A stretch of DNA of 64,000 bases from a virus: the IMG/VR virus record IMGVR_UViG_3300017917_000332, positions 1 to 64,000 of that record. The stretch is one strand, 5' to 3'. Under the pieces are notes generated by a model. The model saw only the letters and a list, made by a program, of their open reading frames with translations, was not told the origin of the DNA and made no database searches. Both the position numbers and the translations under genes were made by a program. Numbering within the stretch: the stretch's first letter is position 1; each line of letters opens with the position of its first letter. Of the stretch, positions 1-27,287 are shown piece by piece.

Positions 1-129
1 GAGTATCTGCTAGGTACTACACAAGAAGAATGGAATGATATTTTTAGAAACTTTAAACCTAGTGACTTATACTATAAATGGGTCACGACCTTTTACTGGC
101 CTAAGTTTTTTGAGAAGATAAAGAGTTAA
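1..129 (+). CDS. 3' end of a hypothetical protein entering the window (…EYLLGTTQEEWNDIFRNFKPSDLYYKWVTTFYWPKFFEKIKS*)
   Basis: Frame 1 is open from base 1 to TAA at 127-129. It overlaps the stop of the convergent ORF, as other convergent pairs here do. Confidence 0.5.
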   Translation, partial: EYLLGTTQEEWNDIFRNFKPSDLYYKWVTTFYWPKFFEKIKS

Positions 130-835
130 CGACTAAGTCTGCAAGTTTTTTGTTTGTTTCAATACCCGGATGTTTTAAATCTCTAGCAACATCTACAACT
201 TCAATATCTTTAGTTTCAAACTGATAGCAGGGAATCCCTAGTGCTTGTATGTACGTAGTTACACTCAAACGCATTATCTTGTAATAATGTTCTAACACAT
301 CAGTTTCAATTACCTTGTAGTACTTGTCAATAATAGGCTTATCGTATAAGTGTTTGATGTAGTCAATCCATGGGCCTAACAAATACTTAGGATCATCAGA
401 TGGGTGAAAAAATCTATAAGGTTCAGGCCATTGAACAACTATATATGCTGGTCGTTTCTTAATGTGTTGGGCCCAAGAAAATAAGTTATGTGTTACAACA
501 TCAGGTCCTGATGCTTCAACAGATAAGTTGTAATAATCCATACCTAGGCTTTTTGAAACTAAGTAGGGATATGTATCTTCTAGCGCAAGACCTGAACCAA
601 ATGTAATACTGCAACCTGCAAATAATACAAAGTCCTTGTCTAGTGTTTCGACGTCTACTGATCTATGCCCGTAGACATTTCTCTTGTAGGTTATATCTTT
701 ATTCCTGTAAATCCAATCTTGAGGTTGAGATTTTAAATTTAATTGATAGTTGTCGTAAGAGTCACTGCCTTCTAAAGTAAAATTAGAATGAGGAGCAGTT
801 TCAGAACCAATTAAGTTGTTGTGTAATTTAATCAT
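101..835 (-). CDS. SGNH/GDSL-like hydrolase or acyltransferase-fold protein
   Basis: Block-I-like FAGCSITFG, NLSVEASG, and C-terminal DLKHPG (DxxH). Confidence 0.6.
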   Translation of the reverse strand: MIKLHNNLIGSETAPHSNFTLEGSDSYDNYQLNLKSQPQDWIYRNKDITYKRNVYGHRSVDVETLDKDFVLFAGCSITFGSGLALEDTYPYLVSKSLGMDYYNLSVEASGPDVVTHNLFSWAQHIKKRPAYIVVQWPEPYRFFHPSDDPKYLLGPWIDYIKHLYDKPIIDKYYKVIETDVLEHYYKIMRLSVTTYIQALGIPCYQFETKDIEVVDVARDLKHPGIETNKKLADLVVNSLSSQKT

Positions 836-2057
836 ATCTTTTTATAAAAGGAAATAAAGACTGCCAATTAGTCGATCTTGATGTGTCGTATAAATCCAAT
901 ACTCTTGTTCTTTCTTTAACAACTTCATAAAAGTCTGCAGGTTCGGTTGATAAAATTTTCATCAATGCATTACACTGGTTAATAACTGTTTCGTCCATTG
1001 TTCGATAATGCTTGTTGTTATTTAAAAAATTAGTTACTGCTTCAACACATTTTATTTTTTGATCAGGTTCTAAATACTGTACACTAAAATAAGGAGGCCC
1101 TTGAACTATCTGCATATTCATTTCATACCAACTGTCAATTTGATTTGCTTTATCTTCAAATACCTCAAATATCTTTTCAATATCAAAAATATTAAAAATA
1201 GAAGCAGTAAAGGAAATACCTATTCGTATAGTTCTCATGCTGATAAGATCGTTTAAATTTTGCGTAAACTGAGAATACCTTCCTGGGTATCTAATAAATC
1301 TAAATTTCTCGTCATCTATATGATCCCAACTGACTACAATGCTGTGTTTTGGAAACAAAGAAATCTTATCAAAGATACTTTGATCGTATGTAATCATATT
1401 AGTCATGATGTTTAGATTAACATCAAAATTTTCATGCTCAATACATTTATCTATGACCTCTAATGCCATTGGATTAATTAAAGGTTCACCCCCTTGGAGG
1501 ATGATTGAGTTAGTATTTTCTAAAGCTAATGACAGGTTATCAGCTACGTTGTTTACACTTTCTAATGTTAATTTTCCAGCACTCCATTCTTCAATTTTAA
1601 TTAACCAAGAAGGAATAGCTACATTATTATCCCTCCATTGAGTAACTTCTTTGGCATGCTGGCTGCTGGCTAATTGATTACAGGTTATACATTTAAGGTT
1701 ACAGAGGTTTCCAGTTTTAATATCTAGGTCAAAAGGAAGGTCAGTTGTCGGGTCAAAATTATCAATGCTTTTTGATATCAATTGATTACTACGTTGTCTT
1801 CTGCTAACAAAACCGTTAGCTTCAGTATCCCAACAACGTTGACAGTTCTCGTTATACTTTCCTTCTATAAGATCTTTGCGAAGACTATTCATCGGATCCG
1901 AACGCCAAACATCTTCAACTTTGTCAGACATTACATTATAAAAAGTTCCGTCTTCTTTTTTTATACCTGTACAAAGACTGCTACAGCAAGGAAGATAATT
2001 TCCGTTCCTCTCTGTTGCAATATGTACGAATGGTAGTATGCAGAATGTATTACTCAT
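828..2057 (-). CDS. Radical SAM enzyme with N-terminal SPASM/twitch-like Cys domain (type A)
   Basis: CNLKCITC (CX3CX2C), GGEP; N-terminal CILPF…CC…CQRCW. Confidence 0.9.
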   Translation of the reverse strand: MSNTFCILPFVHIATERNGNYLPCCSSLCTGIKKEDGTFYNVMSDKVEDVWRSDPMNSLRKDLIEGKYNENCQRCWDTEANGFVSRRQRSNQLISKSIDNFDPTTDLPFDLDIKTGNLCNLKCITCNQLASSQHAKEVTQWRDNNVAIPSWLIKIEEWSAGKLTLESVNNVADNLSLALENTNSIILQGGEPLINPMALEVIDKCIEHENFDVNLNIMTNMITYDQSIFDKISLFPKHSIVVSWDHIDDEKFRFIRYPGRYSQFTQNLNDLISMRTIRIGISFTASIFNIFDIEKIFEVFEDKANQIDSWYEMNMQIVQGPPYFSVQYLEPDQKIKCVEAVTNFLNNNKHYRTMDETVINQCNALMKILSTEPADFYEVVKERTRVLDLYDTSRSTNWQSLFPFIKRYD

Positions 2058-3270
2058 CTTTTAAGTACGGAAACAGTGAGTAGGTATTAGTATTTCTAAT
2101 CTTGTCGTATCCTTCTATTAAACGCTGTCGTTCTGATACAACAAAATCATAATCTTCCGGGTCGCTTAATATTTCTTCAATCTTTGTCATCATAGCCATT
2201 AGATCGTAATCTTTAAAAATAAAATGGTCTTTATTTTTTTCAAGGTAGTCCTTGTGATCTTTTAAAACTTTTTCTTTTTGCTTTTTAGTAAGGTATGTTG
2301 TACTAAAATAGTCAGGCTGGAAAACATTTCGATAAATTACTCTGCCAGTAATTTTTCCCTGTCTAGTTAATTTTTCAAAATGATCTAATATATTAGGTAT
2401 ATCAAAAATATTAAAAATTGAAACGGTCATTGATATGTCTGTTTTGATATTTGGTGCTTCAGTTGTTAGTCTATCAAAGTTGTTTAAAAACTTTTCGTAG
2501 TTTGCAGGATATCTGATATAACTAAATTTTTCAGCAACAATGTGATCCCAACTAATTCCCAGTGTAATATTATTAAAGAACTTTAGTTTCTTAAGTAACT
2601 TATCTGACAAGCTAGTTAAGTTTGTAGTAATCTGCATATTAATATCAAACTGCTGATGTTCTATACAATAGTCTAGTATGCTGTCAAACAGAGGGTGTAT
2701 TAAAGGTTCGCCACCTTCGATTTCTAAGTAAGACGAGTTTTTTAATATAGAAGATATTTGGTCTGTTAGTTTTGTTTTTTCAAAGTCAATTTGATGGCCT
2801 TTGAAAGAATCAATAATTTTAAACCATTTTGGTTTTTCAATACCTTCTTTTTCAAATACTTCTAATTCTTTTTCTATCTGGTTACTATGATAATGGTTAC
2901 AAGTAATACACTTTAGATTGCAGGTATTATCAACCTTAATGCTTAATTGATGCGGCAACTCGTCGACATGACCGCTCTCTTGTATTCTATTCTCATACTG
3001 AGACAACCAAGCTCTGTTAGAACGTTGCCTTCTGCTTTCAACACCCCTTTCTTCGTGGTACCAGCAAGTTTTACAGTTCTTGTGTTTCTCACCGTTTATA
3101 AGAGCACGGCGAACTTCTTTATGAAAGTCCGAGTTCCACGATTCTTCAATTGAGTGTTTCTTAATATTGCAAGGAGAATACGAAACACTTGCAGGACAAA
3201 CCATGTAGTCTCCCGATCTTTCAATTGTAGAATTTATAAAAGGCAATATGCAGATAGTATCTTTATTCAT
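2050..3270 (-). CDS. Radical SAM enzyme, type A
   Basis: CNLKCITC, GGEP, N-terminal CILPF…C…CKTCW; paralog of both neighbours. Confidence 0.9.
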   Translation of the reverse strand: MNKDTICILPFINSTIERSGDYMVCPASVSYSPCNIKKHSIEESWNSDFHKEVRRALINGEKHKNCKTCWYHEERGVESRRQRSNRAWLSQYENRIQESGHVDELPHQLSIKVDNTCNLKCITCNHYHSNQIEKELEVFEKEGIEKPKWFKIIDSFKGHQIDFEKTKLTDQISSILKNSSYLEIEGGEPLIHPLFDSILDYCIEHQQFDINMQITTNLTSLSDKLLKKLKFFNNITLGISWDHIVAEKFSYIRYPANYEKFLNNFDRLTTEAPNIKTDISMTVSIFNIFDIPNILDHFEKLTRQGKITGRVIYRNVFQPDYFSTTYLTKKQKEKVLKDHKDYLEKNKDHFIFKDYDLMAMMTKIEEILSDPEDYDFVVSERQRLIEGYDKIRNTNTYSLFPYLKDE

Positions 3271-4568
3271 TCGTATCTCCTTAGGTACGGGAATAAAGAC
3301 ATATGATCAGTGTTACGCAGTGAATCGTACAAGTCTAACACTCTTGTTCTCTCTTTAACAACTTGGTCAAAGTCTAGCTGTTTAGGGCCCATGAAGCCTC
3401 TAATAGTTCTAATACTTTCTACCATCTCTGGATTATCTTTAAAAACCTTGTAGTGCTGATGTTTATCCAAATACTGATTAAATTTTGTTGCGGCAAGATC
3501 TTTTTGATCCTCGTCTAGGTATTTTAGATTAAAATAGTTAGGGTAATATATCATGCCCATATTAATAGTAAACTTACCAGCAACACGATTGCTAACTTCT
3601 TCCCAGTTTTCAAATATTTCCTCAACATCAAAAATATTAAAAATTCCCCAGGTAGTACTGAGTTTCTTTTCAATATGTTCAAACTCAAATATTTTGTCAA
3701 AGTTTCTTCTAAAATGGTTGTAGTCTGCAGGGTGACGAATAAAGTAAAACTTATCAGGATCTACATGATCGTAGCTGACATTTAACATTGGGTGTTTAAA
3801 CTTGTCCAAATGTCTAAGCGTCTTGTCATTGATTGTAGAAAGGTTGGTGATAATCTGAAGCATCATATGTTCAGCATAACCTGCTTCTACACATCTTTCT
3901 AACAGTCGTATAGTTGCAGGGTTAACTAACGGCTCGCCACCAACTATACTAAGATGTTTTGCTTGTTTAAGACTTGGCTCTAAGTTACTGATCAATTGTT
4001 CAACATCTAGATTTTTGGGATTAAAGTTATCCATGTTTATGTCAAACTTTTTAACTCTAGCGTCCCACATTTTAATTAACCCGGGAGTGTCTAAGTTTTG
4101 AGATTTCATCTTTAGAGACTCTTCGTGGTGCAGACTGCTACTTCCAGGGTAGCACATGATACATTTTAAATTGCACAGAGTACCGATCTTTAAATCAATA
4201 TTTGTTGGCGGCTCCGATAACACGTAGTCATTATTCAGTGCTTCTTGTATGTAAGGTTCGTAGTCTGGATATAAGTCCTTACATTCCACTAAGCTCTTTT
4301 GACGTCTACTAAATGCTCCCCGATCTTCAAACTCCCAGCAGTATTGACAAGTTGGATTCTTAACACCGTTTAGTAAATCTTTTCTAAGTGTTTTATAAAA
4401 GTCACTGTTCCACACTTGGTCAACAGAATGAGTCCTCATGTTATAAGGCTGTCCATTTTCATCATTAATGACTACTTCTTCAGAATAACAACAAACCCTA
4501 TAGTTGCCGTCGTTGGTTGATCCTATATGAGTAAATGGCAAGATACAAAATGTGGGATACTTTTTCAT
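3267..4568 (-). CDS. Radical SAM enzyme, type A
   Basis: CNLKCIMC, GGEP, CILPF…CC…CQYCW. Start moved to ATG 4568 (MKKYPTFC), 5 nt from a TAAATA motif. Confidence 0.9.
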   Translation of the reverse strand: MKKYPTFCILPFTHIGSTNDGNYRVCCYSEEVVINDENGQPYNMRTHSVDQVWNSDFYKTLRKDLLNGVKNPTCQYCWEFEDRGAFSRRQKSLVECKDLYPDYEPYIQEALNNDYVLSEPPTNIDLKIGTLCNLKCIMCYPGSSSLHHEESLKMKSQNLDTPGLIKMWDARVKKFDINMDNFNPKNLDVEQLISNLEPSLKQAKHLSIVGGEPLVNPATIRLLERCVEAGYAEHMMLQIITNLSTINDKTLRHLDKFKHPMLNVSYDHVDPDKFYFIRHPADYNHFRRNFDKIFEFEHIEKKLSTTWGIFNIFDVEEIFENWEEVSNRVAGKFTINMGMIYYPNYFNLKYLDEDQKDLAATKFNQYLDKHQHYKVFKDNPEMVESIRTIRGFMGPKQLDFDQVVKERTRVLDLYDSLRNTDHMSLFPYLRRYE

Positions 4569-4573
4569 TACAC

Positions 4574-4602
4574 TATTTAAGCATAATAGTAGCACATAAA
4601 TA
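4574..4602. promoter_or_regulatory. Divergent pair of TAAATA late-type promoter motifs
   Basis: TATTTA 4574-4579 (minus strand, 5 nt before ATG 4568) and TAAATA 4597-4602 (5 nt before ATG 4608). Confidence 0.65.
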
Positions 4603-4607
4603 GAAAC

Positions 4608-5786
4608 ATGAACACAGTAAACCTAGTAGTCAACCAATTTAATTTTGACGAAGAAATATTACTAAAAGCAGTTAAAGACAAGAGCGGAACCTATTTGGGT
4701 AAGACTGTTAGTCTATGCCACCACTGTCACCAGCATGTACCAGCTTACATATATCACGATCAAAAACATTTATGGATGGCCAAGGCTTGTAAGTTACACG
4801 GTGTTAGCCATCATATGATTGAAAGGGACTACGAGTTCTACAGTAATTTAAAGTACACCAAAAACACTTTTGGATTCACTCATAAAAATGTAATGACTGA
4901 AGTTACTGATAAATGTAATGCTAACTGTCCCCATTGTTATCATATTCCTGACAACTCAAAGCCGGATGTTAGTTACCAAGAACTAATTGCTAAAATAAAC
5001 AAGTGGTATAAAAAAGGCAGTGACACAAATATTATATTTGCAGGTGCCGAACCTTTGCTACGAAAAGACATTATTGAGTTAGTTGAGACTATAAACATCG
5101 AATTTCCGCAATCTAATATTGCGTCATTGACTAACGGCATTAGACTTGCTGACCGTCAGTTAGTTAAAGATTTAAAGTCTGCTGGACTAAAAAGTGTTCT
5201 TATAGGGCTGAATCATCCTAGTTATCTAAACACTCCTGTAATTAGACAGAAACAATTAGACTCTATTATTAACTGCCAAGAAGAAGGTATGAACATGTAT
5301 TACGTAGGATACACTATGAGCAGTACCTTAGAGCTGTTTGATATCCTAGATGAGATTATGAGTAACCCTTGGTATCCTCCTCAATTTAGAATACGCTACG
5401 GTAGTGACATTGGAAGATATCCCGAACAAGAAAGATTATACGTTAGCGATATCTATAAATTAATCAAACACTGGTGTGATAAGAATAACAAACACTTTGA
5501 GGATATGGAAGGTGATAATAACATTTATCACACTATGGTAAAAGTTGAAGGAAAGCCAATTCGTGTTATCCAATGGTGTGACGAGACTGATATACACATG
5601 GAAGAACTAAGAACCGGACCTTACTGCGATTTTGTTAGCGATGGTTTAACAAACTTCTTGCACCAAGTTATTAGACGCGATGTAGAAAAAAATAAAGGAA
5701 TAGTACTTCCTGATTTGCCCCCTACTAGATACCTAATGGAAAATCAGTTTGATTATTCTGAGTTAGATTTTAAAACTTTAAGATAA
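4608..5786 (+). CDS. Radical SAM enzyme with N-terminal rubredoxin-like CxxC-X20-CxxH domain (MJ0619/Tes-like architecture)
   Basis: SLCHHC…KACKLHG; EVTDKCNANCPHC; GAEP; TNG. Confidence 0.85.
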   Translation: MNTVNLVVNQFNFDEEILLKAVKDKSGTYLGKTVSLCHHCHQHVPAYIYHDQKHLWMAKACKLHGVSHHMIERDYEFYSNLKYTKNTFGFTHKNVMTEVTDKCNANCPHCYHIPDNSKPDVSYQELIAKINKWYKKGSDTNIIFAGAEPLLRKDIIELVETINIEFPQSNIASLTNGIRLADRQLVKDLKSAGLKSVLIGLNHPSYLNTPVIRQKQLDSIINCQEEGMNMYYVGYTMSSTLELFDILDEIMSNPWYPPQFRIRYGSDIGRYPEQERLYVSDIYKLIKHWCDKNNKHFEDMEGDNNIYHTMVKVEGKPIRVIQWCDETDIHMEELRTGPYCDFVSDGLTNFLHQVIRRDVEKNKGIVLPDLPPTRYLMENQFDYSELDFKTLR

Positions 5787-6367
5787 ATTTCTTTAAGAGT
5801 GTTGTTAGGCCATTGGATGTAATCTAAACACGCTCTTTCGTACAACAGAGCAACATCCAACTTACCATCTACTGCTAACTTCTCAACAACTTCTAAACGA
5901 TCTGCATTTAGTATTGGTTTGTAGAAATCAACATCAACGAGGCTTTCCTTATAGTTGCAGGATGTATAAAACGAATAAGCTCTTAGTGTTCCTTTGCTGT
6001 CTGTATAAAAACATTTAGGGTAAAAGTTAGGTTTATATATTTTATACTTGTGCAAATCTTTAACTATATTTTCAAGTTGCATTTGCCAGTTGTCTGGTAA
6101 GAAGTCTTCGCAACTATTTCCGTACCAGTCAAAGTATATCTTCTTGCGACCAATATCAACATTTACATGTTCGGGCATCCAAGAAACGTTGTAGCCTTTT
6201 AAGTCAAACAACATTCTACACTCACGCATGAAACTAGACTCAACTAGTTCTTTAGGGTATTTTGGATCAACAGGATTAAAATCAAGACATGCCTGTGTTT
6301 GGTCTTCATTAACTAATAGCGTAAAAAGACCTTGGTGTAGTCCGTTTGATTTAAAATTATTTTCCAC
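5753..6367 (-). CDS. Degenerate protein-kinase-like fold protein
   Basis: FMRECRML (alphaC-like), LHKYKIYKPNFYPKCF (catalytic-loop-like, lacks Asp); paralog of 14201..14893. Confidence 0.5.
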   Translation of the reverse strand: MENNFKSNGLHQGLFTLLVNEDQTQACLDFNPVDPKYPKELVESSFMRECRMLFDLKGYNVSWMPEHVNVDIGRKKIYFDWYGNSCEDFLPDNWQMQLENIVKDLHKYKIYKPNFYPKCFYTDSKGTLRAYSFYTSCNYKESLVDVDFYKPILNADRLEVVEKLAVDGKLDVALLYERACLDYIQWPNNTLKEIYLKVLKSNSE

Positions 6368-6371
6368 CTAG

Positions 6372-6390: not shown

Positions 6391-6394
6391 TCTG

Positions 6395-6922
6395 ATGAAA
6401 TTAATTAGAAACTGTAGTGATATAATTGATTGGGACTACGAAATATCGTTGTTGACTGACGGCAACAGGTTAGTTTACAATGATCAATCCTTTAACAAAG
6501 ATCTACCCCAATTCGCTAAAATGGATAAAGTTTGGCAAGACGCTGGGTATCAATATAACACTGACAGTATTGAGTGGATAAATTATTTTCCAAGGAAAGA
6601 ACTTATTGATAAGTTTTCCGAGCTAGTCGAAGCTAAACCGTGGATGGTTTGGTTCAGTAGAATAAAGCCTGGCAAGATGGCACCATGGCACGAGGATGTA
6701 CATTCAAAAATCAACGAAGTATTGTCTTTAGGAACACCTGTTAGATTCACCTGTTATGTACAGAACCCTCATGTAGGTCATGTTAGTATTGTAGAAAAAC
6801 ATTGTGTGTACATGCCTAATAAAGGGGACATCTATCAATGGCCTTCGCACGATGCGTGGCATTGCGGAATGAACGGCGGACTAGTTGACAAATATATGTT
6901 TAACTTTTGGGGTTACAGATGA
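6395..6922 (+). CDS. Fe(II)/2OG-dependent oxygenase-like (AspH/cupin) protein
   Basis: PGKMAPWHED (HxD) … WHCGMN (distal His). Confidence 0.7.
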   Translation: MKLIRNCSDIIDWDYEISLLTDGNRLVYNDQSFNKDLPQFAKMDKVWQDAGYQYNTDSIEWINYFPRKELIDKFSELVEAKPWMVWFSRIKPGKMAPWHEDVHSKINEVLSLGTPVRFTCYVQNPHVGHVSIVEKHCVYMPNKGDIYQWPSHDAWHCGMNGGLVDKYMFNFWGYR

Positions 6923-8511
6923 ATATAGTTATTGTAGGCGGCGGTTCAGCAGGTTGGATGACTGCTGGTTGGTTATCAAAAAAGAATCCGGGAAATAACA
7001 TTACTGTCATTGAAAGTAGCAATATACCTAAAATAGGTGTAGGTGAAAGCGTTACACCTCACGTTGCATCCTTCTTTTTAGAAATGGGTATTCCTGCAAA
7101 CCATTGGATGAACGCAACCGGATCTATCTATAAATTAGCTAACAAGTTTGTAAACTGGAAGACTGGCCAAGGTGAATACGAGTACTTCAGTTTTAACTAT
7201 ACCGTAGACAGTAACTTCTACTATAAAGATATAAGCCATCCGATATCTAAAGCAGACTGGCTAATATCTAATGACACGCAAAATAAAACTACAGACATCA
7301 TCTTAGAACTTATAAAGAACAAAGACCTTGATAAGTTTGACAAATATTTTAACAGTCAATACCACTACATGGAGAAAAACGTTTCTCCCTTCCTAGATGG
7401 AAAGTATTTACTTAACCCAATATACAGTTGGAGTCAACACATTAACGCCGACCTTGCGGCTGAATATATAAGAGATCACATTGCAATTCCAAACGGAGTT
7501 ACACTAATTAATCAAAAGATTACTAGCGTACAGACAACTGAAGGTTATATAAACTCTGTGACATTAGAAGATGGTAGGGTAGTAACTGCTGACTTGTTTG
7601 TTGATGCTTCAGGCTTCCATAAACTACTAACTAACGCTGTGGGCTGGAAGGAAAAAGTCTATACAGACAATCCTATAGATAGAGCATGGGTGTGTCAGCT
7701 AGACTATGAAAACCACGAATCTGAAATGGTTAACTATACACAAAGTATTGCCCAAAATCATGGTTGGTTATTTAAGATTGGATTGTATCATCGCATGGGG
7801 TCTGGATACTGTTATAGTTCTAGTCACTTGTCTGACGAACAAGCACTAGCTGATTATAAGTCTATGGTAAAGAATCTAAAGAGAGAACCAAGGCTAATAA
7901 AATGGACCCCGTCAAGATTAGAAAAGATGGCTGATAAAAATCTAGTAGCTGTAGGATTAAGTTGCGGATTTGTAGAGCCTATGGAAGCTAATGCTTTGTT
8001 TATTATTATCAACAGCATCGGTCAGCTTTCTTCTGCTATTAGACAGCAACAAGAAAAACAAGTTTGGGATTTTACTGAATTAAACGAAAAGCTGTCATAT
8101 GCTATTGACGATATTGCAGACTTTATTAAAGTTCACTATACACTAAGCAACAGAACACAAACAGATTTTTGGAACGACATGCGAGAATTACATAGAAAAG
8201 AAAACCATGTTGATCTTATCTACTCTAAGTATGTTCATCCTAACAATGTTATGACAAATGCTGTATCCGGATATTCATTATTTCCAGATTACATGTGGGC
8301 ACAATTAGCAACAGCATGGGACATAGACACTACAGGATGGTACAAGACTCCAGATCCGTTGACTGTAGAATTAGGCAAGATGCACTTTCAACACCAAGAA
8401 AGAAAGCACAATCTTGTATCTAGTAATATGGAAAACAACTTTAGATGGCTACAGTCTAATATCTTTAATGGACTTAGTTCTGCCGAATGGCAACAAAAGT
8501 ATATTAGTTAA
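6919..8511 (+). CDS. Flavin-dependent tryptophan-halogenase-family protein
   Basis: IVGGGSAGW, VGES, IYKLANKFVNW (catalytic Lys region), DLFVDASGF, GFVEPME; ATGA overlap with the upstream gene. Confidence 0.88.
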   Translation: MNIVIVGGGSAGWMTAGWLSKKNPGNNITVIESSNIPKIGVGESVTPHVASFFLEMGIPANHWMNATGSIYKLANKFVNWKTGQGEYEYFSFNYTVDSNFYYKDISHPISKADWLISNDTQNKTTDIILELIKNKDLDKFDKYFNSQYHYMEKNVSPFLDGKYLLNPIYSWSQHINADLAAEYIRDHIAIPNGVTLINQKITSVQTTEGYINSVTLEDGRVVTADLFVDASGFHKLLTNAVGWKEKVYTDNPIDRAWVCQLDYENHESEMVNYTQSIAQNHGWLFKIGLYHRMGSGYCYSSSHLSDEQALADYKSMVKNLKREPRLIKWTPSRLEKMADKNLVAVGLSCGFVEPMEANALFIIINSIGQLSSAIRQQQEKQVWDFTELNEKLSYAIDDIADFIKVHYTLSNRTQTDFWNDMRELHRKENHVDLIYSKYVHPNNVMTNAVSGYSLFPDYMWAQLATAWDIDTTGWYKTPDPLTVELGKMHFQHQERKHNLVSSNMENNFRWLQSNIFNGLSSAEWQQKYIS

Positions 8512-20123: not shown

Positions 20124-20994
20124 TAATAGGAATATCTGCGGCACACGTACACCAGTCTCTAGTACATATAACTGGATCGCTAGGAGCAACAAAGCTATCT
20201 TCATAAATGTTGCCTAGGCTACCACCAACTCTACAAGTTGCTCGATGTACTTCCCCATCCCAATTGATCATGAGGCTTTCGAGACCGGCGTTACATGTCC
20301 AGTCTTTATACTTGTTTAGATGTAACTTAATCACATCGTTAGCATGTATTACTTGTTCGTTATCAATTACACAGTTACCTTGAACTGTAGCATCTTGTTC
20401 TTTAATCCATGCTAGGTCATCTGGGTGATAACGCATGTCGTCAAACAGATTATGATCGCCTTCTGTCCATCGAATTCGTCTTACGGTACACGGAATACTG
20501 TCATGTATCAATAGTCCCCTAACAAACTTAACTTGATGCATGTAGTCATGATGCGACATAATCTGACCAATGAGTTTTTTATTAGATTTTTCTGCTAACT
20601 GTTGTAATGTTTTAACTACTCTTCGCCACTCGAATTCAAAATGTATGCTAAACACATACTGTTCTACTGGTAATGATTGATAAAACTCAAACGGTAAAGT
20701 GCCGTTAGTTGTTACACTGATCCAACTAACACCTTTATACTTTGCATACTTTACTAGTTCGTAAAACTTAGGGTGTACACAGGGTTCGCCGCCTGTGAAA
20801 CTTAGGCGAACGGGTTTATTTAAAGACACTAGTTTATCTATAGCAGACTTTAACACTTCTATATCAGTGTGCGGACTAGAATTGTCATGTATCGAACTTG
20901 GACAATAGCTACAATCGTAATTGCAACGTTTGCCTAAGTTCCATTCAACCTTAATGCTATCTTGATGAGGCCAACGACTAGTTACCTTAAACAT
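20101..20994 (-). CDS. Radical SAM/SPASM enzyme, type C
   Basis: CNYDCSYC, GGEP, TTNG, WTCNAG…ATC…CTRDWCTCAAD. Confidence 0.9.
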   Translation of the reverse strand: MFKVTSRWPHQDSIKVEWNLGKRCNYDCSYCPSSIHDNSSPHTDIEVLKSAIDKLVSLNKPVRLSFTGGEPCVHPKFYELVKYAKYKGVSWISVTTNGTLPFEFYQSLPVEQYVFSIHFEFEWRRVVKTLQQLAEKSNKKLIGQIMSHHDYMHQVKFVRGLLIHDSIPCTVRRIRWTEGDHNLFDDMRYHPDDLAWIKEQDATVQGNCVIDNEQVIHANDVIKLHLNKYKDWTCNAGLESLMINWDGEVHRATCRVGGSLGNIYEDSFVAPSDPVICTRDWCTCAADIPITKQVVSE

Positions 20995-22252
20995 AAGGTT
21001 TAAACTCCGGAACTGCTTGAAGAAGATCTTGATTTCTAGTTTTATCTAATCTTCGATTAAATTCTAAAAAGTCATTCCATAGATGACTTTGATCTTTAGC
21101 ACGTAGATAGTTAATGTTATCTTTTATCTGTTGCTGTGTGATTTTTTCTAGTATAGGATACTTCTCGACGTTGCTAAAAGTAAACACACGACTTGCTATT
21201 GCTTCGAGCCTAGATATTGCTAGTTCTTTTAGATCTTGTGGCAAGACTTGTGCTGACAATACATTAGGATAACTAACTCTATGGCTATAAAAGACAATGT
21301 TTAAGTGATTGATGAAATAATCAATACATTCCGCTGCCTGTAATATATTACCCGCTTGGGCTGTGAATGCCCCGACAACTCTACTAACATTTGGTATCGT
21401 TTGTATTTCTCTAATGTTAGCCTCCACTTGAGAAAAGTTACCGTTACCACGAATGTAATTATAAACATCGTGAATGCCGTCAATGCTAACATTAACGGCA
21501 ACTGACTTAAAATAAGGCCAATAGTCATGAATTGTTCTTCCTTTGCTTATACCTAGTGTTGTTCCATTGGTTGCATACTTGATTTCAATACTCTTTCCAT
21601 AAGGTTTAAGCATATCTAAAATCTTATAGTGATGAGGATCCATTAACGGCTCACCGCCCGCAAATTCTACACGCCTAAAATGTGGAAGTAACTTTTCAAA
21701 ACTAGCCCACCATTTATCTGTATCATCAAATGGTCCAATATATTGTCCAGGCTTCTGAACTAATTTTCCAATAGTTGGCACTAGATAGTTGTTTTCTTTT
21801 TCGTAAAAGGGTTTTACTTCGTCCCAGTCTTGCCAGCTAGTGCTGTCTAAAGGATTGCACATTCTGCATTTTAGATTGCAGAGGTTATTAATTTTAATTT
21901 CCATTGTAGGAAATTCAAAAGGCAATGTATAGTTGTCAGTTAACTGATCAAGTGCTGTTGGATATAAGTTTATTCTAGCTTCGGGTATGACGCCGTTGAT
22001 GTGTCGTTGTCTTAGACTTTCAACGCCCTGATCTTCTAGATCAAAACAAGGCTTACATACATCAGGACGCCCTCCGTTTAAGACTTGTCGTCTAACTTCT
22101 TGCATCTTAGAATTGTTCCATACCTCTTCTAAGCTATTTTCTTGTATCCAGCCAATAGGTTGACTGCGGCAACATATTTTAATTGCACCGTCTTCTCGTG
22201 TTGCCAGTCCTGTAAAAGGATGCATACAGAATGTCTTACTTTGATTGTTCAA
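20987..22252 (-). CDS. Radical SAM enzyme, type A
   Basis: FCMHPF…ICC…CKPCF; CNLKCRMC; GGEP. Probable TTG start at 22252, overlapping the upstream gene's end. Confidence 0.88.
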   Translation of the reverse strand: MNNQSKTFCMHPFTGLATREDGAIKICCRSQPIGWIQENSLEEVWNNSKMQEVRRQVLNGGRPDVCKPCFDLEDQGVESLRQRHINGVIPEARINLYPTALDQLTDNYTLPFEFPTMEIKINNLCNLKCRMCNPLDSTSWQDWDEVKPFYEKENNYLVPTIGKLVQKPGQYIGPFDDTDKWWASFEKLLPHFRRVEFAGGEPLMDPHHYKILDMLKPYGKSIEIKYATNGTTLGISKGRTIHDYWPYFKSVAVNVSIDGIHDVYNYIRGNGNFSQVEANIREIQTIPNVSRVVGAFTAQAGNILQAAECIDYFINHLNIVFYSHRVSYPNVLSAQVLPQDLKELAISRLEAIASRVFTFSNVEKYPILEKITQQQIKDNINYLRAKDQSHLWNDFLEFNRRLDKTRNQDLLQAVPEFKPYV

Positions 22253-22952
22253 TTGCCCACTCTCGTTCTTTACACCAAAAACATTTCCCGCACGTTGGCA
22301 CAAACTGTCCCGGTGTGTAGGTCTCATAAGTTATGTTTGGAAATTCGCCTTCACAACTTCTGGTTAAGTTTAACAACTTTTCAAGACCTAATTCTTTATA
22401 TTTTAACACAATCCAACTCTTATCTACAAACCTAAAAGGATGACAAGCTAACTTGCCCAAATGAATCATTTTTTCTAAATGCCTGTTATCATTAGTTGGA
22501 TCGATATTTCTTGCTTCTGGACCGCCTTCGACATTTTTAGGATTTCGAGTAACTCCGTTAAAGTATGCATCGACGTCGTAGGTAATGCATACGTATTCTG
22601 CAAAAGATCTTAATTCTAAAGTATCACCGCTAACAGTTTTACCATACTCATCTGTTATCATTGTACCATAGGCGTGTTCCATTTCTGGAGGTATAAAATT
22701 AGTATGTAACTCAAAGTTTATATGAACAAACTCTTGTCTTAACCAATTATAAACATTTTTAAAATCTTGTTGTTGCCAAGGTTTAGTTTTCCAGCACCGT
22801 ATGTTATTAATAATGTGTACGGTAAACGGCTCAACACTATTATCTTTAACTGTTTGGCATACCATATAAGCCAACAAGGCACTGTCAGCACCGCCGCTAA
22901 CGGCAATAGCAACGCTTCTCCAATCTTTGCTAAACGGTATTTCAACTTTCAT
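22236..22952 (-). CDS. QueC-like PP-loop ATPase (adenine nucleotide alpha-hydrolase superfamily)
   Basis: VSGGADS PP-loop; C-terminal TRSC…CGKCFWCKER Zn site as in QueC; YGQ/PxRN motifs not seen. Confidence 0.7.
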   Translation of the reverse strand: MKVEIPFSKDWRSVAIAVSGGADSALLAYMVCQTVKDNSVEPFTVHIINNIRCWKTKPWQQQDFKNVYNWLRQEFVHINFELHTNFIPPEMEHAYGTMITDEYGKTVSGDTLELRSFAEYVCITYDVDAYFNGVTRNPKNVEGGPEARNIDPTNDNRHLEKMIHLGKLACHPFRFVDKSWIVLKYKELGLEKLLNLTRSCEGEFPNITYETYTPGQFVPTCGKCFWCKEREWAIEQSK

Positions 22953-22963
22953 AAGTATAATTA
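22952..22963. promoter_or_regulatory. Interdigitated divergent late-type promoter motifs
   Basis: TAAGTA 22952-22957 lies 5 nt before + ATG 22963; palindromic TAATTA 22958-22963 lies 5 nt before - ATG 22952. Confidence 0.5.
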
Positions 22964-23640
22964 TGCTCACAAAACTTCCACAGAAATTTTCTATAGACCC
23001 AATAGTTGATCAAGTTAACAACTTATCTTTTGAAAAAAGATTGGATCTTAATCGTCCAACTGGTAAGTTTTTTAACGACCCTTGGGAAACATTGTCAGAA
23101 TTTCAAAACACTCCAATTGGCGAAGTTTTAAATACAGTTGGATCAATTGGGCAAGCAAGACTTTTAAAGTTAGAATCTGCTGAAAGTTATACTGCTCATG
23201 CTGACCCCGACGATAGAATACATCTTGCTATTGTTACTAATCCGTATAGTTTTTTAGTTGACATAACCGATAATCATCTACATCATTTGCCAGCTGACGG
23301 TCAGCTTTGGTATATGGATACTGGGAAGATTCATGTTGCGGCAAACTGGGGAGCCACTACACGAATACACTTAAACATTAGGGTATTATTACCTAAACTA
23401 GATAGATCTAAAGAAGTTCTACAGATTAAAGTGCTTAGTGGCGGTTTTGATTGGAAACAAGCATCTTACTTGCCAATTATGAAACTAGTTAATAAAGATG
23501 TAAAGTCTGGAAACATTACTGGATTTGAGTCAAGCAACGAAAAAGAACTTTTCTTAAACATAAACGACAAGTCTGAGATTATTAAGATGCTAGAGAATAT
23601 AAAGCAACACGGTATAGATATAATTACCAATACTTTATAG
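22963..23640 (+). CDS. AspH-like Fe(II)/2OG oxygenase with C-terminal extension
   Basis: YTAHADPDDRIHLAI…MDTGKIHVAAN…RIHL. Confidence 0.7.
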   Translation: MLTKLPQKFSIDPIVDQVNNLSFEKRLDLNRPTGKFFNDPWETLSEFQNTPIGEVLNTVGSIGQARLLKLESAESYTAHADPDDRIHLAIVTNPYSFLVDITDNHLHHLPADGQLWYMDTGKIHVAANWGATTRIHLNIRVLLPKLDRSKEVLQIKVLSGGFDWKQASYLPIMKLVNKDVKSGNITGFESSNEKELFLNINDKSEIIKMLENIKQHGIDIITNTL

Positions 23641-24730
23641 GATCTTCTTTCTTAACAGTTCCCTCAACTAATTGTTTAAGATTAGTTGAACAACTCTTAA
23701 CACATACTAATTTCTTATCAGTTGTAAAGTGCTTGGGCAAGGTTTCATTCCAATTTGAGTCTAACAATACTTGTATAATGTTAGAACCATGCAATGATGG
23801 AATACCAATATCTTGTTTGATATCTTCTCCGGATATGCGCAATCTTTCTCTGATAATAAAGTCTGCGCCAGTAGTTGGTAAATGCTCTGCTGTCATTAAA
23901 CTACCAACGAAACAACATGGCCATACTTCTCCAAGCGCATTTACAAATAAATCTTTTCCTGTTGCACACTTGGCATCGATAATAGAATCATCAATCATCT
24001 TTTTGTAGACTTCTTTATCAACTAGTCTAACAAAATTTGGTTGCATTACTTTTTCGCCAAACTCAGGAAGTGTTGGACTTTGAATGTAGTATTCAATGTT
24101 TCCTTGCTTATCTTTAACGGGATAATTTTCTAATCCGTAAAATCTTTGTGTTGGTTTTAAAGCAACTTCGTCAAAGCCTAGACCTAATAGAAAGTCTTTT
24201 AGCTCGTGGACTCTAGCTTCATTATGCTTAAAAATAATAGTATCGGACTTTGCTCGGCCACCGGCTGCAATATATGTCTTTGCATTTTCAATAACCTTAG
24301 ACCAACTAGTGTTTCTTCTGTAGATTTCGTGTTCACCTTCAAACCCGTCAATGGCAAAAATAACATGACCTCTATTGCCAAGGACCTTAGCAAGACTTGT
24401 CCACCAGTCTTTGTTTCTTAGACTGCCGTTAGTGTGTATGTCAAGTCTACAGGTTTCTTTTGTGTTCTCTACAAGGTACTGAAAAATTTCTAAACAATCT
24501 CTAGCAAGTAGGGGATCTCCGTTATTGCCGCAGGCATAAAAGTGATCCAACTGCATTAGAAACTCTCTAGGAAACCACTGTTTAAATTCTTCTAACGAAA
24601 TTTCTACGTTTCTAATATGACTTCTTTCTGCACCACCAAATACGTTTCTTGGACACATAGGACACGCGGCTTGGCACTTATCAGTCAGCTCGATATGTAC
24701 TGATTTAATGTTATAAGGATATACTTGCAT
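23624..24730 (-). CDS. Radical SAM/SPASM enzyme, type B
   Basis: CQAACPMCPR, CGNNGDP, HTNGS, FAIDG, FKHNE, G.VWPCC, CVKSC. Confidence 0.9.
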   Translation of the reverse strand: MQVYPYNIKSVHIELTDKCQAACPMCPRNVFGGAERSHIRNVEISLEEFKQWFPREFLMQLDHFYACGNNGDPLLARDCLEIFQYLVENTKETCRLDIHTNGSLRNKDWWTSLAKVLGNRGHVIFAIDGFEGEHEIYRRNTSWSKVIENAKTYIAAGGRAKSDTIIFKHNEARVHELKDFLLGLGFDEVALKPTQRFYGLENYPVKDKQGNIEYYIQSPTLPEFGEKVMQPNFVRLVDKEVYKKMIDDSIIDAKCATGKDLFVNALGEVWPCCFVGSLMTAEHLPTTGADFIIRERLRISGEDIKQDIGIPSLHGSNIIQVLLDSNWNETLPKHFTTDKKLVCVKSCSTNLKQLVEGTVKKEDPIKYW

Positions 24731-25331
24731 CGCGTTTTCCAATAATCATAAATCTTTTATATAAGGGTAACTCTAGTTCGCCGGCCCAGATAACATTTAA
24801 ACGACTTTGATCTTTAAACTGTTCTAAAGATTCAGCTATCCTTACGTGTTCTGGTATTTGATAGTTGTTAGACTGCAACACAATCAAACTATCTAAAGGT
24901 AATTTAGATAGCCACTTATCGTATTGCTCTTGTGTAATGTGTTCAAAGCTAGTGTTGATAATAATGTCAGCGCGACTATTGTATTCGCACATATCAGCAG
25001 TTACAGCACGAAACCGTCCTGTTTGTAGTTCTAGCTGATTCATTGTGTTGGCAATCTCTTCGCAGGTTGGGTCTATGTCAATACTGGTTATTCTTTCAAT
25101 AAACATAGTGCTTTGAAACATCAAACTTGCTAGAGTGCCTACCCAACCTCCGTGAATGTCTATAGTTGGCCAATCTTTATGATGATATCGTTGCTTCTGT
25201 AGCTCATCAATAAGCCATTCTTTACTACGTATCTGTCCCTTCCAGAATGCGTCCATAGTACGCATAGGATCTTTGCTGTTTCTAATAGCTAACATCCAGT
25301 AATGGATGTGATCGAGGTCAAGCTCTATCAA
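24711..25331 (-). CDS. Class I SAM-dependent methyltransferase-like protein
   Basis: IDIHGGWVG (motif I variant), SIDID, TADM, INTSFEH. Confidence 0.65.
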   Translation of the reverse strand: MIELDLDHIHYWMLAIRNSKDPMRTMDAFWKGQIRSKEWLIDELQKQRYHHKDWPTIDIHGGWVGTLASLMFQSTMFIERITSIDIDPTCEEIANTMNQLELQTGRFRAVTADMCEYNSRADIIINTSFEHITQEQYDKWLSKLPLDSLIVLQSNNYQIPEHVRIAESLEQFKDQSRLNVIWAGELELPLYKRFMIIGKRDASISL

Positions 25332-26310
25332 ACTGTGCTCCTAGCTTATCAAATTTACCGCACTGTTTAGCACACTCTAACAAAGGCTCTTTGTCCCAAG
25401 TGTCTGATATCTTTCCAAAATATCCACTATCAAACATTTCTTTTAGAGACATTTTGTTAAGATTAGGAATAGTTCTAATACGATCCATATAGTCTACTCG
25501 AGAATCTTGCCTAGGCAAAATCCATTGGAAATCTAACCAACAGCAGGGACTTACGTTTCCGTTTGCCGCAACATAAAGTTGATTAGTTTGTTTTGCTTTA
25601 CAACTAATTGATGAAGGCTTAATCTCAATAATAGATTCTTGAACCTGCTGTATCATTCCAGAACTTCTTTCTGTAGGATAAATGATATGAGTAGTATAAC
25701 CTTCATCGTCGAGAACATGTAATTTGTTCCCTGTAAACCGTGAAGTATGTTTTGTAGTAAAGTGTTTGAATCCGTATTGCTCGCTAAGAGCTTTGCAGTC
25801 CTCTACTTGATGTTCGTTATGTTTAAAAACTAGCATGTGCCATTCAGCATTGCCACCTGCTTCGATAAATGCCTTAGCATTTTCAATAATCTTGTGCCAG
25901 TCCGTTGATATACGATATAAATGATGTGTGTCAGCTAGTCCATCTATGCCAAAAGTAGTTCTTACATCAAGTTTAGCAAGCTCTTTCCACCATTCGGTAG
26001 TCCTAGCACTTCCGTTAGTATGCATACTCAAAGCAATATTAGGGTTATGCTCTTTGAGATACTGATAAATTTCTAAAGTATCTTGGGCAATAATAGGATC
26101 GCCTAGGTTACCACACATGATTAAACTTCCTAGTTGCTTAACAAAGTCAACTGGGAACCATTCTTTAAACTGTTCAAGTGTAATCTCCTCAAGGTCAATT
26201 AACGGATTCATTATACCGCCATTGACTCTTCTAGGACACATAGGACACCTAGCTTGGCATTTAGATGTTACTTCAAGGTGTATAGATTTTATATCTTCGT
26301 AATTGTACAT
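25318..26310 (-). CDS. Radical SAM/SPASM enzyme, type B
   Basis: CQARCPMCPR, CGNLGDP, HTNGS, FGIDG, FKHNEHQ, VSPCC, CAKQC. Confidence 0.9.
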   Translation of the reverse strand: MYNYEDIKSIHLEVTSKCQARCPMCPRRVNGGIMNPLIDLEEITLEQFKEWFPVDFVKQLGSLIMCGNLGDPIIAQDTLEIYQYLKEHNPNIALSMHTNGSARTTEWWKELAKLDVRTTFGIDGLADTHHLYRISTDWHKIIENAKAFIEAGGNAEWHMLVFKHNEHQVEDCKALSEQYGFKHFTTKHTSRFTGNKLHVLDDEGYTTHIIYPTERSSGMIQQVQESIIEIKPSSISCKAKQTNQLYVAANGNVSPCCWLDFQWILPRQDSRVDYMDRIRTIPNLNKMSLKEMFDSGYFGKISDTWDKEPLLECAKQCGKFDKLGAQFDRA

Positions 26311-27287
26311 GTCTTTGGTATTTTCGAATCTGCTGAACTAACGCAACTAGGTGTAATACACTGTTGCGGTTGTTTAAACAATTCAAATCCTGTTGTTAGT
26401 GTGCCTAGTGGTTGATCGTGGCAACTGTAGCTACGTTTAACCTCGGCTCCCCTGATTATAACACTTTGATATCCAGCATTACAAGTCCAGTTGGTAAATT
26501 TATTAAATCCAAATGCATTAAATCTTTCAGCTTGATCAAACAAGTATTCTGTGTTGTCTTTGTCATACAGAGCAATTTGATAAACTTCTTCACCTTGAGA
26601 CTGTTGAGGGAAACCATTTTTCATTAAATGAATCATGTCTTCAGTATATCCATCAACTACTTGACTAGCAGTTGGATCGCTTTGTGGCTTTAGAGTAACG
26701 TTAATTCCTCTACTGTGCAGTCTAGACATCCTGTCGTAAAGCTCGTAGAACTTTTCTGGAACCATAACTTGATTAACAGTAACGTAGACGTTTTCGTCAA
26801 TAAGTTTTAAACACTTGTCTCCAAATTCAGATTCTTTAGCAAATTCTGCATGATAGCTGGCTGTAATACTTCTGCGCTGTAAAGCAGATGTTATACTTGC
26901 CCAGGTCTTCCACCAATTGATGCTGGGACTAAGATTAGTAGTCATGTGTATGCTTTGATATGGGCTGACTAAATCTTGTTCTAAATGTCTAGTTAGGTCT
27001 AGCAGTCTTTTATAAGCAGTAGGTTCCCCGCCACTAAAACTCCAATGAAATTCAGTAAATCCATTTTGGCGAGCTTGCCGTTTGATTTCATCAATAGTCT
27101 GAACATATAATTCAAATGATTGGTAATCGAGCTCATCGGACCTAGCATAGGGCCAGCAGTAAGAACATTTATAATTACAGAAGCGACCAAGTATCCAACT
27201 AACAGAAAACAATGGCCTATTGAGCATTGTCCTTTGTCCAAAACGGACAATATCCTTAAATGGTATAGTATCGAAGTTCATTGACAC
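26289..27287 (-). CDS. Radical SAM/SPASM enzyme, type C
   Basis: CNYKCSYC, SGGEPT, MTTN, WTCNAG…SC…CITPSCVSSAD; start may be ATG 27281. Confidence 0.9.
   Translation of the reverse strand: MSMNFDTIPFKDIVRFGQRTMLNRPLFSVSWILGRFCNYKCSYCWPYARSDELDYQSFELYVQTIDEIKRQARQNGFTEFHWSFSGGEPTAYKRLLDLTRHLEQDLVSPYQSIHMTTNLSPSINWWKTWASITSALQRRSITASYHAEFAKESEFGDKCLKLIDENVYVTVNQVMVPEKFYELYDRMSRLHSRGINVTLKPQSDPTASQVVDGYTEDMIHLMKNGFPQQSQGEEVYQIALYDKDNTEYLFDQAERFNAFGFNKFTNWTCNAGYQSVIIRGAEVKRSYSCHDQPLGTLTTGFELFKQPQQCITPSCVSSADSKIPKTCTITKI

Follow-up and report, generated by a model that had tools for sequence, protein, structure and literature searches.

A radical SAM-dominated enzyme island with a conserved core and a variable shell in the genome fragment of an uncultured T4-like jumbo phage

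The DNA considered here (the window) comprises bases 1–64000 of a linear IMG/VR virus record, IMGVR_UViG_3300017917_000332, which has 74,452 bases in total and is estimated by CheckV to be ~20% complete. Positions 101–27287 are occupied by an island of 30 nearly gap-free open reading frames (ORFs; g01–g30) dominated by radical S-adenosylmethionine (SAM) enzymes. The right half of the window encodes an ATP-dependent DNA ligase, two ClpP-like proteases, a metallophosphoesterase, QueD/PTPS and an endonuclease, together with a virion structural protein, a 3909-aa ORF and baseplate-wedge-like genes. A T4-type gp23 capsid gene is present in near-complete relatives (331 kb and 358 kb; 93% and 100% complete). 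Judging by these window genes and by gp23 in the relatives, the window is a fragment of an uncultured T4-like jumbo phage, in line with the phage origin proposed in an initial annotation of this DNA. No close isolate was found: megablast of 20 kb against isolated phages gave zero matches, and a protein search of an isolated-phage collection with g21 returned just four distant records. Comparisons were made with five other records of the same clade (G001–G005, of which G004 closely resembles G002), and islands were retrieved for four larger relatives, G001, G002, G003 and G005, two of which are the near-complete genomes. Because window position 1 is the end of the record, the island may be truncated on the left.

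Exactly 12 genes in the island match the Radical_SAM family (PF04055) in a Pfam scan and a six-frame search, and a motif scan flagged CX3CX2C in all 12. The PF04055 gathering score (29.5) is exceeded by 11 of the 12 in the Pfam scan; g18 is borderline, scoring 29.0 bits there and 31.3 when searched in six frames. Hidden Markov models (HMMs) and all-against-all clustering agree on four groups, which upholds the earlier count of 12 radical SAM genes in four subfamilies. The first group carries an N-terminal twitch-like domain and belongs to N_Twi_rSAM (NCBIfam NF033640; membership defined as a full-length score >170 bits). Its members are g02 (828–2057, − strand; 269 bits, with PF04055 and an N-terminal SPASM match), g03 (2050–3270, −; 282 bits), g04 (3267–4568, −; 287 bits, its start moved to the ATG at 4568), g21 (17680–19110, +; 404 bits) and g24 (20987–22327, −; 319 bits, 63–78% identical in relatives). 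The true starts of the last two are uncertain, that of g21 lying near 17758. The second group has a SPASM-like C-terminal part and consists of g18 (15398–16507, −; start moved to the ATG at 16507), g27 (23624–24742, −; PF04055 35.8 bits), which clusters with the other two, and g29 (25318–26310, −; PF04055 43 bits, SPASM 29 bits). The third contains short radical SAM proteins: g22 (19107–20123, +; PF04055 50.6 bits), whose viperin- and MoaA-type matches are partial only, the STM4011-like g23 (20101–20994, −; PF04055 47.7 bits; NF038073 54.7 bits, below its cut-off) and g30 (26289–27281, −; PF04055 43.7 bits; start moved to the ATG at 27281). The fourth is g05 alone (4608–5786, +; PF04055 60 bits), with the N-terminal Zn ribbon of the Tes/TrsS/HMPTM group (PF23545, E 1.7e-10) and matches to TrsS and Tes below their cut-offs.

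A 13th radical SAM gene, also of the N_Twi_rSAM family (41393–42763, +; NF033640 349 bits), stands alone outside the island and is orthologous (38–49% identity) to N_Twi genes of a second module in the relatives' islands. With it, six genes of the window belong to NF033640, at 269–404 bits against the threshold of 170. CX3CX2C is invariant among these six paralogues (five in the island plus the 41.4-kb gene), and four further invariant Cys lie ahead of it in the N-terminal, Cys-rich twitch-like domain. Positions 9–77 of the N_Twi profile align with the twitch domain of BtrN, and against solved radical SAM enzymes the profile gives generic matches (a Tes-type synthase, MoaA, SkfB, the BtrN twitch, BlsE and viperin). 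An AlphaFold model of g21 (pLDDT 77) likewise finds generic radical SAM folds, with a best structural match of TM ≤0.43.

Iron–sulfur (Fe-S) support is encoded nearby: an A-type Fe-S cluster carrier lies at 50214–50537 (+; PF01521, E 1e-22), and G001 has two copies flanking its island. The carrier is likely a helper for the many Fe-S enzymes. In the window it shares one unit with structural genes.

Around the radical SAM genes lie other enzymes, several of them firmly assigned. The halogenase, class III aminotransferase, amidinotransferase and PP-loop enzyme named in the initial annotation are all recovered. The flavin-dependent halogenase g08 (6907–8511, +) matches PF04820 Trp_halogenase at E 1e-88, and the class III (omega) aminotransferase g14 (11987–13123, −) matches PF00202 Aminotran_3 at E 3e-31. 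The amidinotransferase g15 (13120–14157, −) matches the solved structures of HsvA (1e-15), StrB1 (2e-11), AGAT (3e-8) and SxtG. The match to these amidinotransferases (GME superfamily) reaches its C-terminus, where an HCCT motif is found. The PP-loop ATP pyrophosphatase g25 (22236–22952, −), QueC-like, has an invariant SGGADS (the SGGxDS motif) and a C-terminal CxxCxxC. In an AlphaFold model (pLDDT 78.5) its closest folds are QueC (3BL5, 2PG3; TM 0.5–0.6) and Cap9 (9NTO), and it also resembles tRNA thiolases and TilS; it fails the QueC models (PF06508 16.6 bits against 22; no NCBIfam QueC match).

The six oxygenase-like proteins of the initial annotation fared unevenly. Three belong with the Asp/Arg-hydroxylase family of Fe/2-oxoglutarate (2OG) enzymes: g13 (11409–11969, −; PF05118 61 bits, with weak OlsC/LpxO matches), g19 (16549–17166, +; PF05118 26 bits against a cut-off of 22.6) and g26 (22963–23640, +; Asp_Arg_Hydrox 21.7 bits), a beta-hydroxylase of the Cpz10 type whose profile matches Cpz10 (7V4F) at E 6e-18. 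Cpz10 hydroxylates a small nucleoside-antibiotic intermediate (PMC9814697). For g09 (8508–9311, −), 53–86% identical in all four larger relatives, an Atlas neighbour cluster with PF05118 (score 0.96) gives a weak lead to a possibly divergent cupin of the same kind. The oxygenase label was not verified for g12 (10621–11421, −), a g09 paralogue at 24% identity (alignment A5), or for g07 (6395–6922, +), which has no family match. Neither g07 nor g09/g12 aligns significantly with the g26 profile in hhalign, and g09/g12 have no PDB support.

Further labels held in part. The short-chain dehydrogenase/reductase (SDR) g20 (17163–17762, +) is SDR-like in its Rossmann N-terminus only, with adh_short at 23.6 bits, below cut-off, and weak PDB matches of which 34/34 are SDRs. 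The methyltransferase g28 (24711–25331, −) shows GxGxG-like and acidic motifs of a Rossmann methyltransferase and has viral 'methyltransferase' clusters as Atlas neighbours. The kinase-fold pair consists of g16 (14201–14893, +; start moved to the ATG at 14201), 44–61% identical in relatives, and its distant paralogue g06 (5753–6367, −; 22% identity in alignment A6), and the A6 profile matches protein kinases weakly (E 0.002). Other labels were not verified: the GNAT label of g17 (14881–15435, +), which is conserved at 37–71% identity in relatives and has no PDB or family match, and the SGNH labels of g01 and g10. The 244-aa g01 (101–835, −) matches DUF6473 alone, at 23 bits against a cut-off of 27, and has homologues 25–44% identical in some relatives; g10 (9313–10131, −) has no matches, and the two show zero similarity to each other. 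Profile searches against solved structures returned nothing for g25, g28, g09/g12, g17 or g10. The 149-aa g11 (10175–10624, +) has no family matches.

As the initial annotation held, domains of nonribosomal peptide or polyketide synthases and of transporters are missing from the island's Pfam matches (E ≤0.01). The same matches include no PqqD or RiPP recognition element (RRE; RiPP, ribosomally synthesized and post-translationally modified peptide), leader protease or carrier protein. With every intergenic gap <45 nt, a precursor gene cannot be accommodated. In the clade, a PP-binding domain was found only in G002, distant from its island, and ten unannotated genes of the G002 island have no Pfam matches.

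The initial annotation described one biosynthetic mega-cluster; its enzyme content is real, but the region is not uniform and divides into a conserved core (g21–g30) and a hypervariable shell (g01–g20). A search with g21 recruited 79 related IMG/VR viral loci at 59–85% identity, and metagenomes contain >4500 homologues of this best conserved core gene. Synteny tables show the core (17.7–27.3 kb) recurring in most of the 79 loci and in the four larger relatives. Its seven radical SAM genes fall into five conserved orthogroups, and it also contains g25, g26 and g28. The shell, with five radical SAM genes, the halogenase, the amidinotransferase, the omega-aminotransferase, cupins and the SDR-like and kinase-fold-like proteins, is patchy: g08 and g10–g15 are almost unique to the present genome, and g06, g07, g09, g16 and g17 are common to some relatives.

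The same organization holds across the clade. G001–G005 have 13–21 radical SAM genes each, and 72 of the 76 radical SAM matches in these five records fall inside islands spanning 22–56 kb. Outside them lie four matches: a single gene in each of G001, G004 and G005 and a weak sub-cut-off match in G003. At 35% identity, the 74 radical SAM genes of the window, G001, G002, G003 and G005 form 31 orthogroups. Five orthogroups (the g21, g23, g24 and g30 types and the g27/g29 type) occur in 5/5 genomes, as do the g25, g26 and g28 types, and gene order inside the island varies between relatives. For 12 genes, synonymous divergence (pS) is 0.71–0.88, that is saturated, against nonsynonymous divergence (pN) of 0.10–0.33, which indicates purifying selection and contradicts the decay that the initial annotation had named beforehand as evidence against its proposal.

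The island is made up of ~13 short units on both strands, and 11 of them start 4–6 nt after a box of the form (C/A)ATAA(A/G/T)TA. A scan for TAA[AGT]TA followed 4–6 nt downstream by the start of a long ORF gave 15 cases among 139 motif copies, 13 of which are real gene starts, and it shifted six start codons. The 11 boxed starts of island units (4568−, 4608+, 6367−, 6395+, 10175+, 14201+, 16507−, 16549+, 22952−, 22963+ and 27281−) compare with far fewer than 1 expected. The other two are the 13th radical SAM gene (CATAATTA, 5 nt, then ATG at 41393), which despite its position outside the island has the same late-type box, and the unit beginning at 49331. ATAAATA itself is depleted: the window has 11 copies where shuffled sequence has 22 ± 5, and eight of them immediately precede a same-strand start. 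Several genes inside units (e.g. g03 and g13) are preceded instead by a Shine–Dalgarno-like GGAG.

Divergent pairs of units are served by paired boxes. Between g04 (−) and g05 (+), back-to-back boxes occupy 4574–4602, with CTTAAATA, 5 nt and ATG on the − strand (TAAATA standing 5 nt before the g04 ATG at 4568) and CATAAATA, 5 nt and ATG on the + strand. Between g18 (−) and g19 (+), at 16513–16543, ATAAATA occurs at 16513–16519 (−) and 16537–16543 (+), and CATAAATA lies 5 nt before the g18 ATG at 16507. Single boxes precede g11 (AATAAATA, 6 nt before its ATG) and g16 (GATAAGTA, 4 nt before the ATG at 14201). At g25/g26 the two divergent boxes overlap (22952–22963): CATAAGTA, 5 nt and ATG on the + strand, CATAATTA, 5 nt and ATG on the − strand. 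The start codons of g25 (−) and g26 (+) are 10 nt apart, and each TAA[GT]TA box lies inside the first codons of the other gene. This layout implies that the junction (22940–22975) is a very compact two-way promoter with predicted leaderless mRNAs. It is identical in G001, G002 and G005; the exception is G003, where the g25 homologue has a sigma-70-type TTGACA-N16-TATAAT, 5 nt and ATG. The g30 box also recurs in relatives, with TAAATA 6–10 nt before the start in ~25 of them.

The same motif opens a unit with virion genes, as the initial annotation had observed. The unit at 49331–64000 (+) begins with AATAAATA, 4 nt and ATG and contains, in order, a 185-aa ORF, the A-type Fe-S carrier, the 3909-aa ORF and baseplate-wedge-like genes. 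T4 late promoters have the same consensus, (C/A)ATAAATA, and the boxes are of the T4 late type (TATAAATA-like). A gp55-like sigma factor is encoded in four relatives (E 1e-6 to 1e-7); none occurs on the 74-kb fragment, which holds ~20% of the genome. The island has no strong sigma-70 site (best 10/12), unlike the stretch 27.3–47.3 kb, where three perfect and six 11/12 sites all lie on the coding strand; the flank at 27–43 kb carries early-type genes. The upstream region of gp23 in relatives is uninformative, the gene lying inside an operon. Because of the position and conservation of the boxes, the gp55-like sigma in relatives and the lack of strong sigma-70 sites in the island, the island units are probably transcribed late, as leaderless mRNAs, and such expression can be regarded as soundly inferred.

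Bdellovibrionales/Oligoflexia assemblies supply the overwhelming majority of cellular N_Twi homologues. Among 151 evenly sampled Bdellovibrionota genomes the N_Twi_rSAM family occurs in 31, with up to 11 or more copies, against 0/14 model organisms. Five Bdellovibrionales/Oligoflexia genomes examined have 10–15 N_Twi copies above cut-off, mostly in islands. Two Bdellovibrionales islands (G010:C2 2.13–2.16 Mb and G006:C91 141–172 kb) contain 7–12 or more radical SAM genes of the same families, and one island on a 3.04-Mb contig packs at least seven into 12 kb. The g25 type is nearly phage-specific, being found in 1/151 Bdellovibrionota genomes, within a radical SAM island. The g30 protein is 47–56% identical to genes of Bdellovibrionales metagenome-assembled genomes. 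The G006 island shares g21-, g28-, g29- and g30-like genes, 34–48% identical to those of the window, and two of its genes are 59–66% identical to G003 genes; it also encodes a CMP-sugar-type cytidylyltransferase, a NodU/CmcH carbamoyltransferase and a nitroreductase. In G003, a second module of radical SAM genes (G003:C1 74–81 kb) has 58–66% protein identity to Bdellovibrionales genes, which suggests recent exchange between these phages and Bdellovibrionota. The link as a whole points to gene exchange and perhaps to a host relationship. Distant, single-copy N_Twi homologues also occur in Paenibacillus (L146 8278–16281), beside an acyl carrier protein (ACP), a FabG-like SDR, two ketosynthases and a family 2 glycosyltransferase (GT2), and in Eubacterium (L140 6096–13513), beside two radical SAM proteins, a PIG-L deacetylase and a PP-binding/C39-like protein.

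Comparable gene sets have been mentioned in passing in other T4-like phages. In pelagimyophages and cyanomyophages, radical SAM cassettes lie in a hypervariable host recognition cluster, and an Asp/Asn beta-hydroxylase is core to all the genomes described there (Zaragoza-Solas et al. 2020; PMC7029224). Those phages, like the present one, are aquatic T4-like myophages with a large, non-syntenic island that includes radical SAM cassettes. Their cluster, however, sits between VrlC and gp14 with tail fibres and many glycosyltransferases (PMC7029224), whereas the present island is radical SAM-dominated, belongs to a genome of ~330–360 kb and has no fibre or glycosyltransferase family among the Pfam matches of its 30 genes. 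Nishimura et al. (2017; PMC5332604) cited, as an example of Fe-S-related genes and without cluster analysis, an uncultured T4-like marine viral genome of 183 kb in which 12 radical SAM genes occur alongside an A-type Fe-S carrier; the window has 12 plus 1 and the carrier at 50214–50537. The 183-kb genome was not among the records returned by the g21 search of the phage collection. In the literature, such radical SAM islands receive passing mentions only, in PMC7029224 and PMC5332604, without functional analysis. The halogenase has its own parallel: g08 homologues 28–31% identical occur in 62 phage records, mostly T4-like cyanophages, where they are annotated 'tryptophan halogenase'. In the present clade it is an accessory gene, with a copy (33% identity) in G003 only among the relatives examined. 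The characterised member of the cyanophage group is VirX1 of cyanophage Syn10. Among the plastic enzyme islands of T4-like aquatic phages, the present one is a radical SAM-rich variant, and it is real, selected and widespread.

Known pathways share parts of this composition. RiPP clusters (sactipeptides and proteusins, e.g. polytheonamide) also combine several auxiliary-cluster radical SAM enzymes with a hydroxylase and a methyltransferase. A RiPP reading was rejected: precursor peptide, RRE, leader protease and exporter were not found, and an amidinotransferase and an omega-aminotransferase are present. Aminoglycoside and aminocyclitol pathways have in common with the island a BtrN-like twitch, a StrB1-like amidinotransferase, an aminotransferase and SDR-like and kinase-fold-like proteins; they differ in that the island has no cyclitol synthase or glycosyltransferase and its aminotransferase is of class III. 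The g13–g15 sub-module is itself missing from most relatives. The earlier view that no characterised pathway matches the gene set is borne out.

The explanation that we tentatively favour, with a confidence somewhat below even, is that the conserved core and the variable shell tailor a non-ribosomal small molecule. The core would build a polar, sugar-, nucleoside- or amino-acid-like scaffold bearing a carboxylate, through radical C–H and C–C chemistry together with amidation, hydroxylation and methylation. In this scheme g25 would activate the carboxylate with ATP in the manner of QueC, and the shell would decorate the scaffold strain-specifically by amination, amidination, hydroxylation and halogenation. 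The genes would be expressed late, from leaderless mRNAs, by the host RNA polymerase with a phage sigma of the gp55 type, and the product might serve late in infection, on the virion or on the infected-cell surface. Core and shell would act on one and the same scaffold, and that the substrate is a small molecule we infer from several features. The solved relatives of g15 (HsvA, StrB1, AGAT and SxtG) are all small-molecule (small-amine) enzymes. The omega-aminotransferase g14 and Cpz10, the nearest solved relative of g26, fit the same picture, as does QueC among the nearest folds of g25; QueC activates the carboxylate of a small molecule. The lack of a precursor gene, RRE, protease and transporter in the island is also consistent with it, and so are the neighbours of N_Twi in Paenibacillus and Eubacterium, and the cytidylyltransferase and carbamoyltransferase of the Bdellovibrionales island. 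The explanation as a whole also draws on the Fe-S carrier in the window and beside the G001 island.

Several observations weigh against this explanation. NF033640 is merely catalogued; no characterised member and no close solved structure was found for N_Twi_rSAM, and membership therefore says nothing about the reaction. Peptide maturases (CteB, SkfB and SuiB) match the g21 model at least as well as nucleotide or sugar enzymes do. Peptides or proteins are very frequent substrates of SPASM/twitch radical SAM enzymes and of Asp/Asn hydroxylases, and Cap9, a near fold of g25, modifies a protein. Among the Pfam matches of the window there is no glycosyltransferase, nucleotidyltransferase, carrier protein or exporter. 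No tight linkage of sugar-activating genes to the core was found in the phages: the 79 phage loci and the four fetched islands contain no cytidylyltransferase, and a carbamoyltransferase occurs in G001 only, ~25 kb from the core. Finally, the shuffled gene order and a separate promoter for almost every small unit would also fit independent enzymes.

Modification of virion proteins is an unlikely alternative that nevertheless deserves some weight. Cross-links, hydroxylation or methylation would be introduced late into structural proteins such as the 3909-aa protein or the fibres, and the late-type box shared by the island units and the giant-ORF/baseplate unit agrees with this. So do the nature of auxiliary-cluster radical SAM enzymes as classic peptide and protein maturases (CteB, SkfB and SuiB being among the top folds of g21), the naming of PF05118 after protein Asp/Asn hydroxylases, and the weak resemblance of g16/g06 to protein kinases. 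The composition of the island fits less well: neither an RRE/PqqD domain nor a gene for a candidate substrate lies in the core or next to it, and no protein-modifying relatives are known for the amidinotransferase, the omega-aminotransferase or the halogenase. Islands of the same enzyme family, moreover, occur on Bdellovibrionota chromosomes, where there is no virion.

Two other possibilities are less probable still, and about equally so. In the first, the island would remodel the host envelope, placing a modified sugar or lipid on the surface of the infected cell that blocks superinfection or alters receptors. An analogous role was proposed for LPS-type (lipopolysaccharide) genes of pelagimyophage host-recognition clusters, and the hypervariable islands of T4-like marine myophages combine radical SAM cassettes with glycosyltransferases and Asp/Asn beta-hydroxylases (PMC7029224). 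The weak matches of g13 to the lipid hydroxylases OlsC and LpxO and of g05 to the lipid synthase Tes point the same way, although all these lipid-enzyme matches lie far below the family cut-offs; the ACP/ketosynthase/GT2 surroundings of the Paenibacillus homologue and the hypervariability of the island, which suggests diversifying selection, also agree with it. Late expression, however, would leave exclusion little useful time, and no glycosyltransferase, flippase or membrane protein is found among the Pfam matches of the window.

In the second, there would be no single pathway, the region being a plastic one that collects independent enzymes with their own promoters and unrelated substrates. 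T4-like genomes are known for such regions (PMC7029224), and the division into ~13 very small, individually boxed units that alternate in strand, the reshuffled gene order and the many singletons among the 31 radical SAM orthogroups of five genomes are what it would produce. It accounts poorly for the co-location of eight core orthogroups in 5/5 genomes and in most of the 79 loci despite rearrangement, for the confinement of 72/76 radical SAM matches to single islands per genome, and for the co-occurrence of part of the same set in Bdellovibrionales.

A tRNA-shaped RNA lies just beyond the island, at 27316–27424 (+). It has a 7-bp acceptor stem, a T arm, a long variable arm and an encoded CCA, with a long hairpin in place of the anticodon loop and a TATAAT-like −10 box 7 nt upstream; ARAGORN and Rfam made no calls in the window, this RNA included. 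It is kept beside the g30 homologue, with compensatory changes, in at least 10 distinct relatives, and was not found in the islands of G001, G002, G003 and G005 or in the cellular loci examined. Genes for making a pterin/deazapurine precursor also occur in the clade: the window has QueD/PTPS at 45968–46607 (+), behind a perfect (12/12) sigma-70 promoter, and G001, G002, G003 and G005 encode GTP cyclohydrolase I (FolE).

Modification of nucleic acids, with post-replicative phage DNA or an RNA (e.g. the tRNA-shaped one) as substrate, is a distinctly improbable use of the island. Its QueC-like, radical SAM, methyltransferase and hydroxylase chemistry would be that of tRNA and 7-deazapurine pathways, and it draws on the likeness of the g25 fold to QueC, tRNA thiolases and TilS, on GTP cyclohydrolase I and QueD/PTPS in the clade, and on the covariation in the anticodon-less RNA, which the larger relatives' islands and the cellular loci lack. 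The phage 7-deazaguanine pathway (FolE–QueD–QueE–QueC–DpdA) has FolE, QueD and a QueC-like fold in common with this clade; it differs in its TGT/DpdA (PF01702), which has no match in G000–G003 or G005, five records among which are the two genomes rated 93% and 100% complete. In these two, the search for QueC gave nothing above threshold, g25 fails the QueC models, and none of the radical SAM genes reaches any QueE cut-off. A 7-deazaguanine DNA route was rejected, with no TGT, no true QueC or QueE, and FolE and QueD scattered. The initial annotation had used late timing to argue against the making of DNA precursors for replication. As an argument against DNA chemistry, late timing is weak, because post-replicative modification of DNA is also late; a DNA route is disfavoured instead because TGT/DpdA was not found in the near-complete relatives.

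The island is of interest beyond the present phage. Radical SAM enzymes carry out some of the hardest reactions in biology, and just five related phage genomes contain 74 such genes in 31 orthogroups, with no characterised member found for the dominant family. The >4500 metagenome homologues of one core gene imply that the product is probably made on a very large natural scale. That the phage devotes ~8% of a 350-kb genome to oxygen-sensitive Fe-S enzymes, and supplies an Fe-S carrier of its own, implies an important gain from them. It is possible, although doubtful, that the island and its Bdellovibrionota counterparts represent a novel biosynthetic route founded on N_Twi radical SAM enzymes, with a core scaffold and fast-changing shell variants; a large natural-product-like pathway would then be carried and diversified by bacterial viruses. 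A bolder and very remote form of this idea has the tRNA-like RNA beside g30 as the carrier on which the molecule would be built. The occurrence of the family in 31/151 genomes of the predatory Bdellovibrionota offers a cultivable route to the chemistry of the island, and the compact two-way late promoters, predicted to be leaderless, provide a tidy model of T4-type late transcription beyond T4.

Between the island and the virion-gene unit, the window also contains a tandem pair of ClpP-like/head-maturation-protease-like genes at 36156–37410 (+), encoding proteins of 206 and 190 aa.

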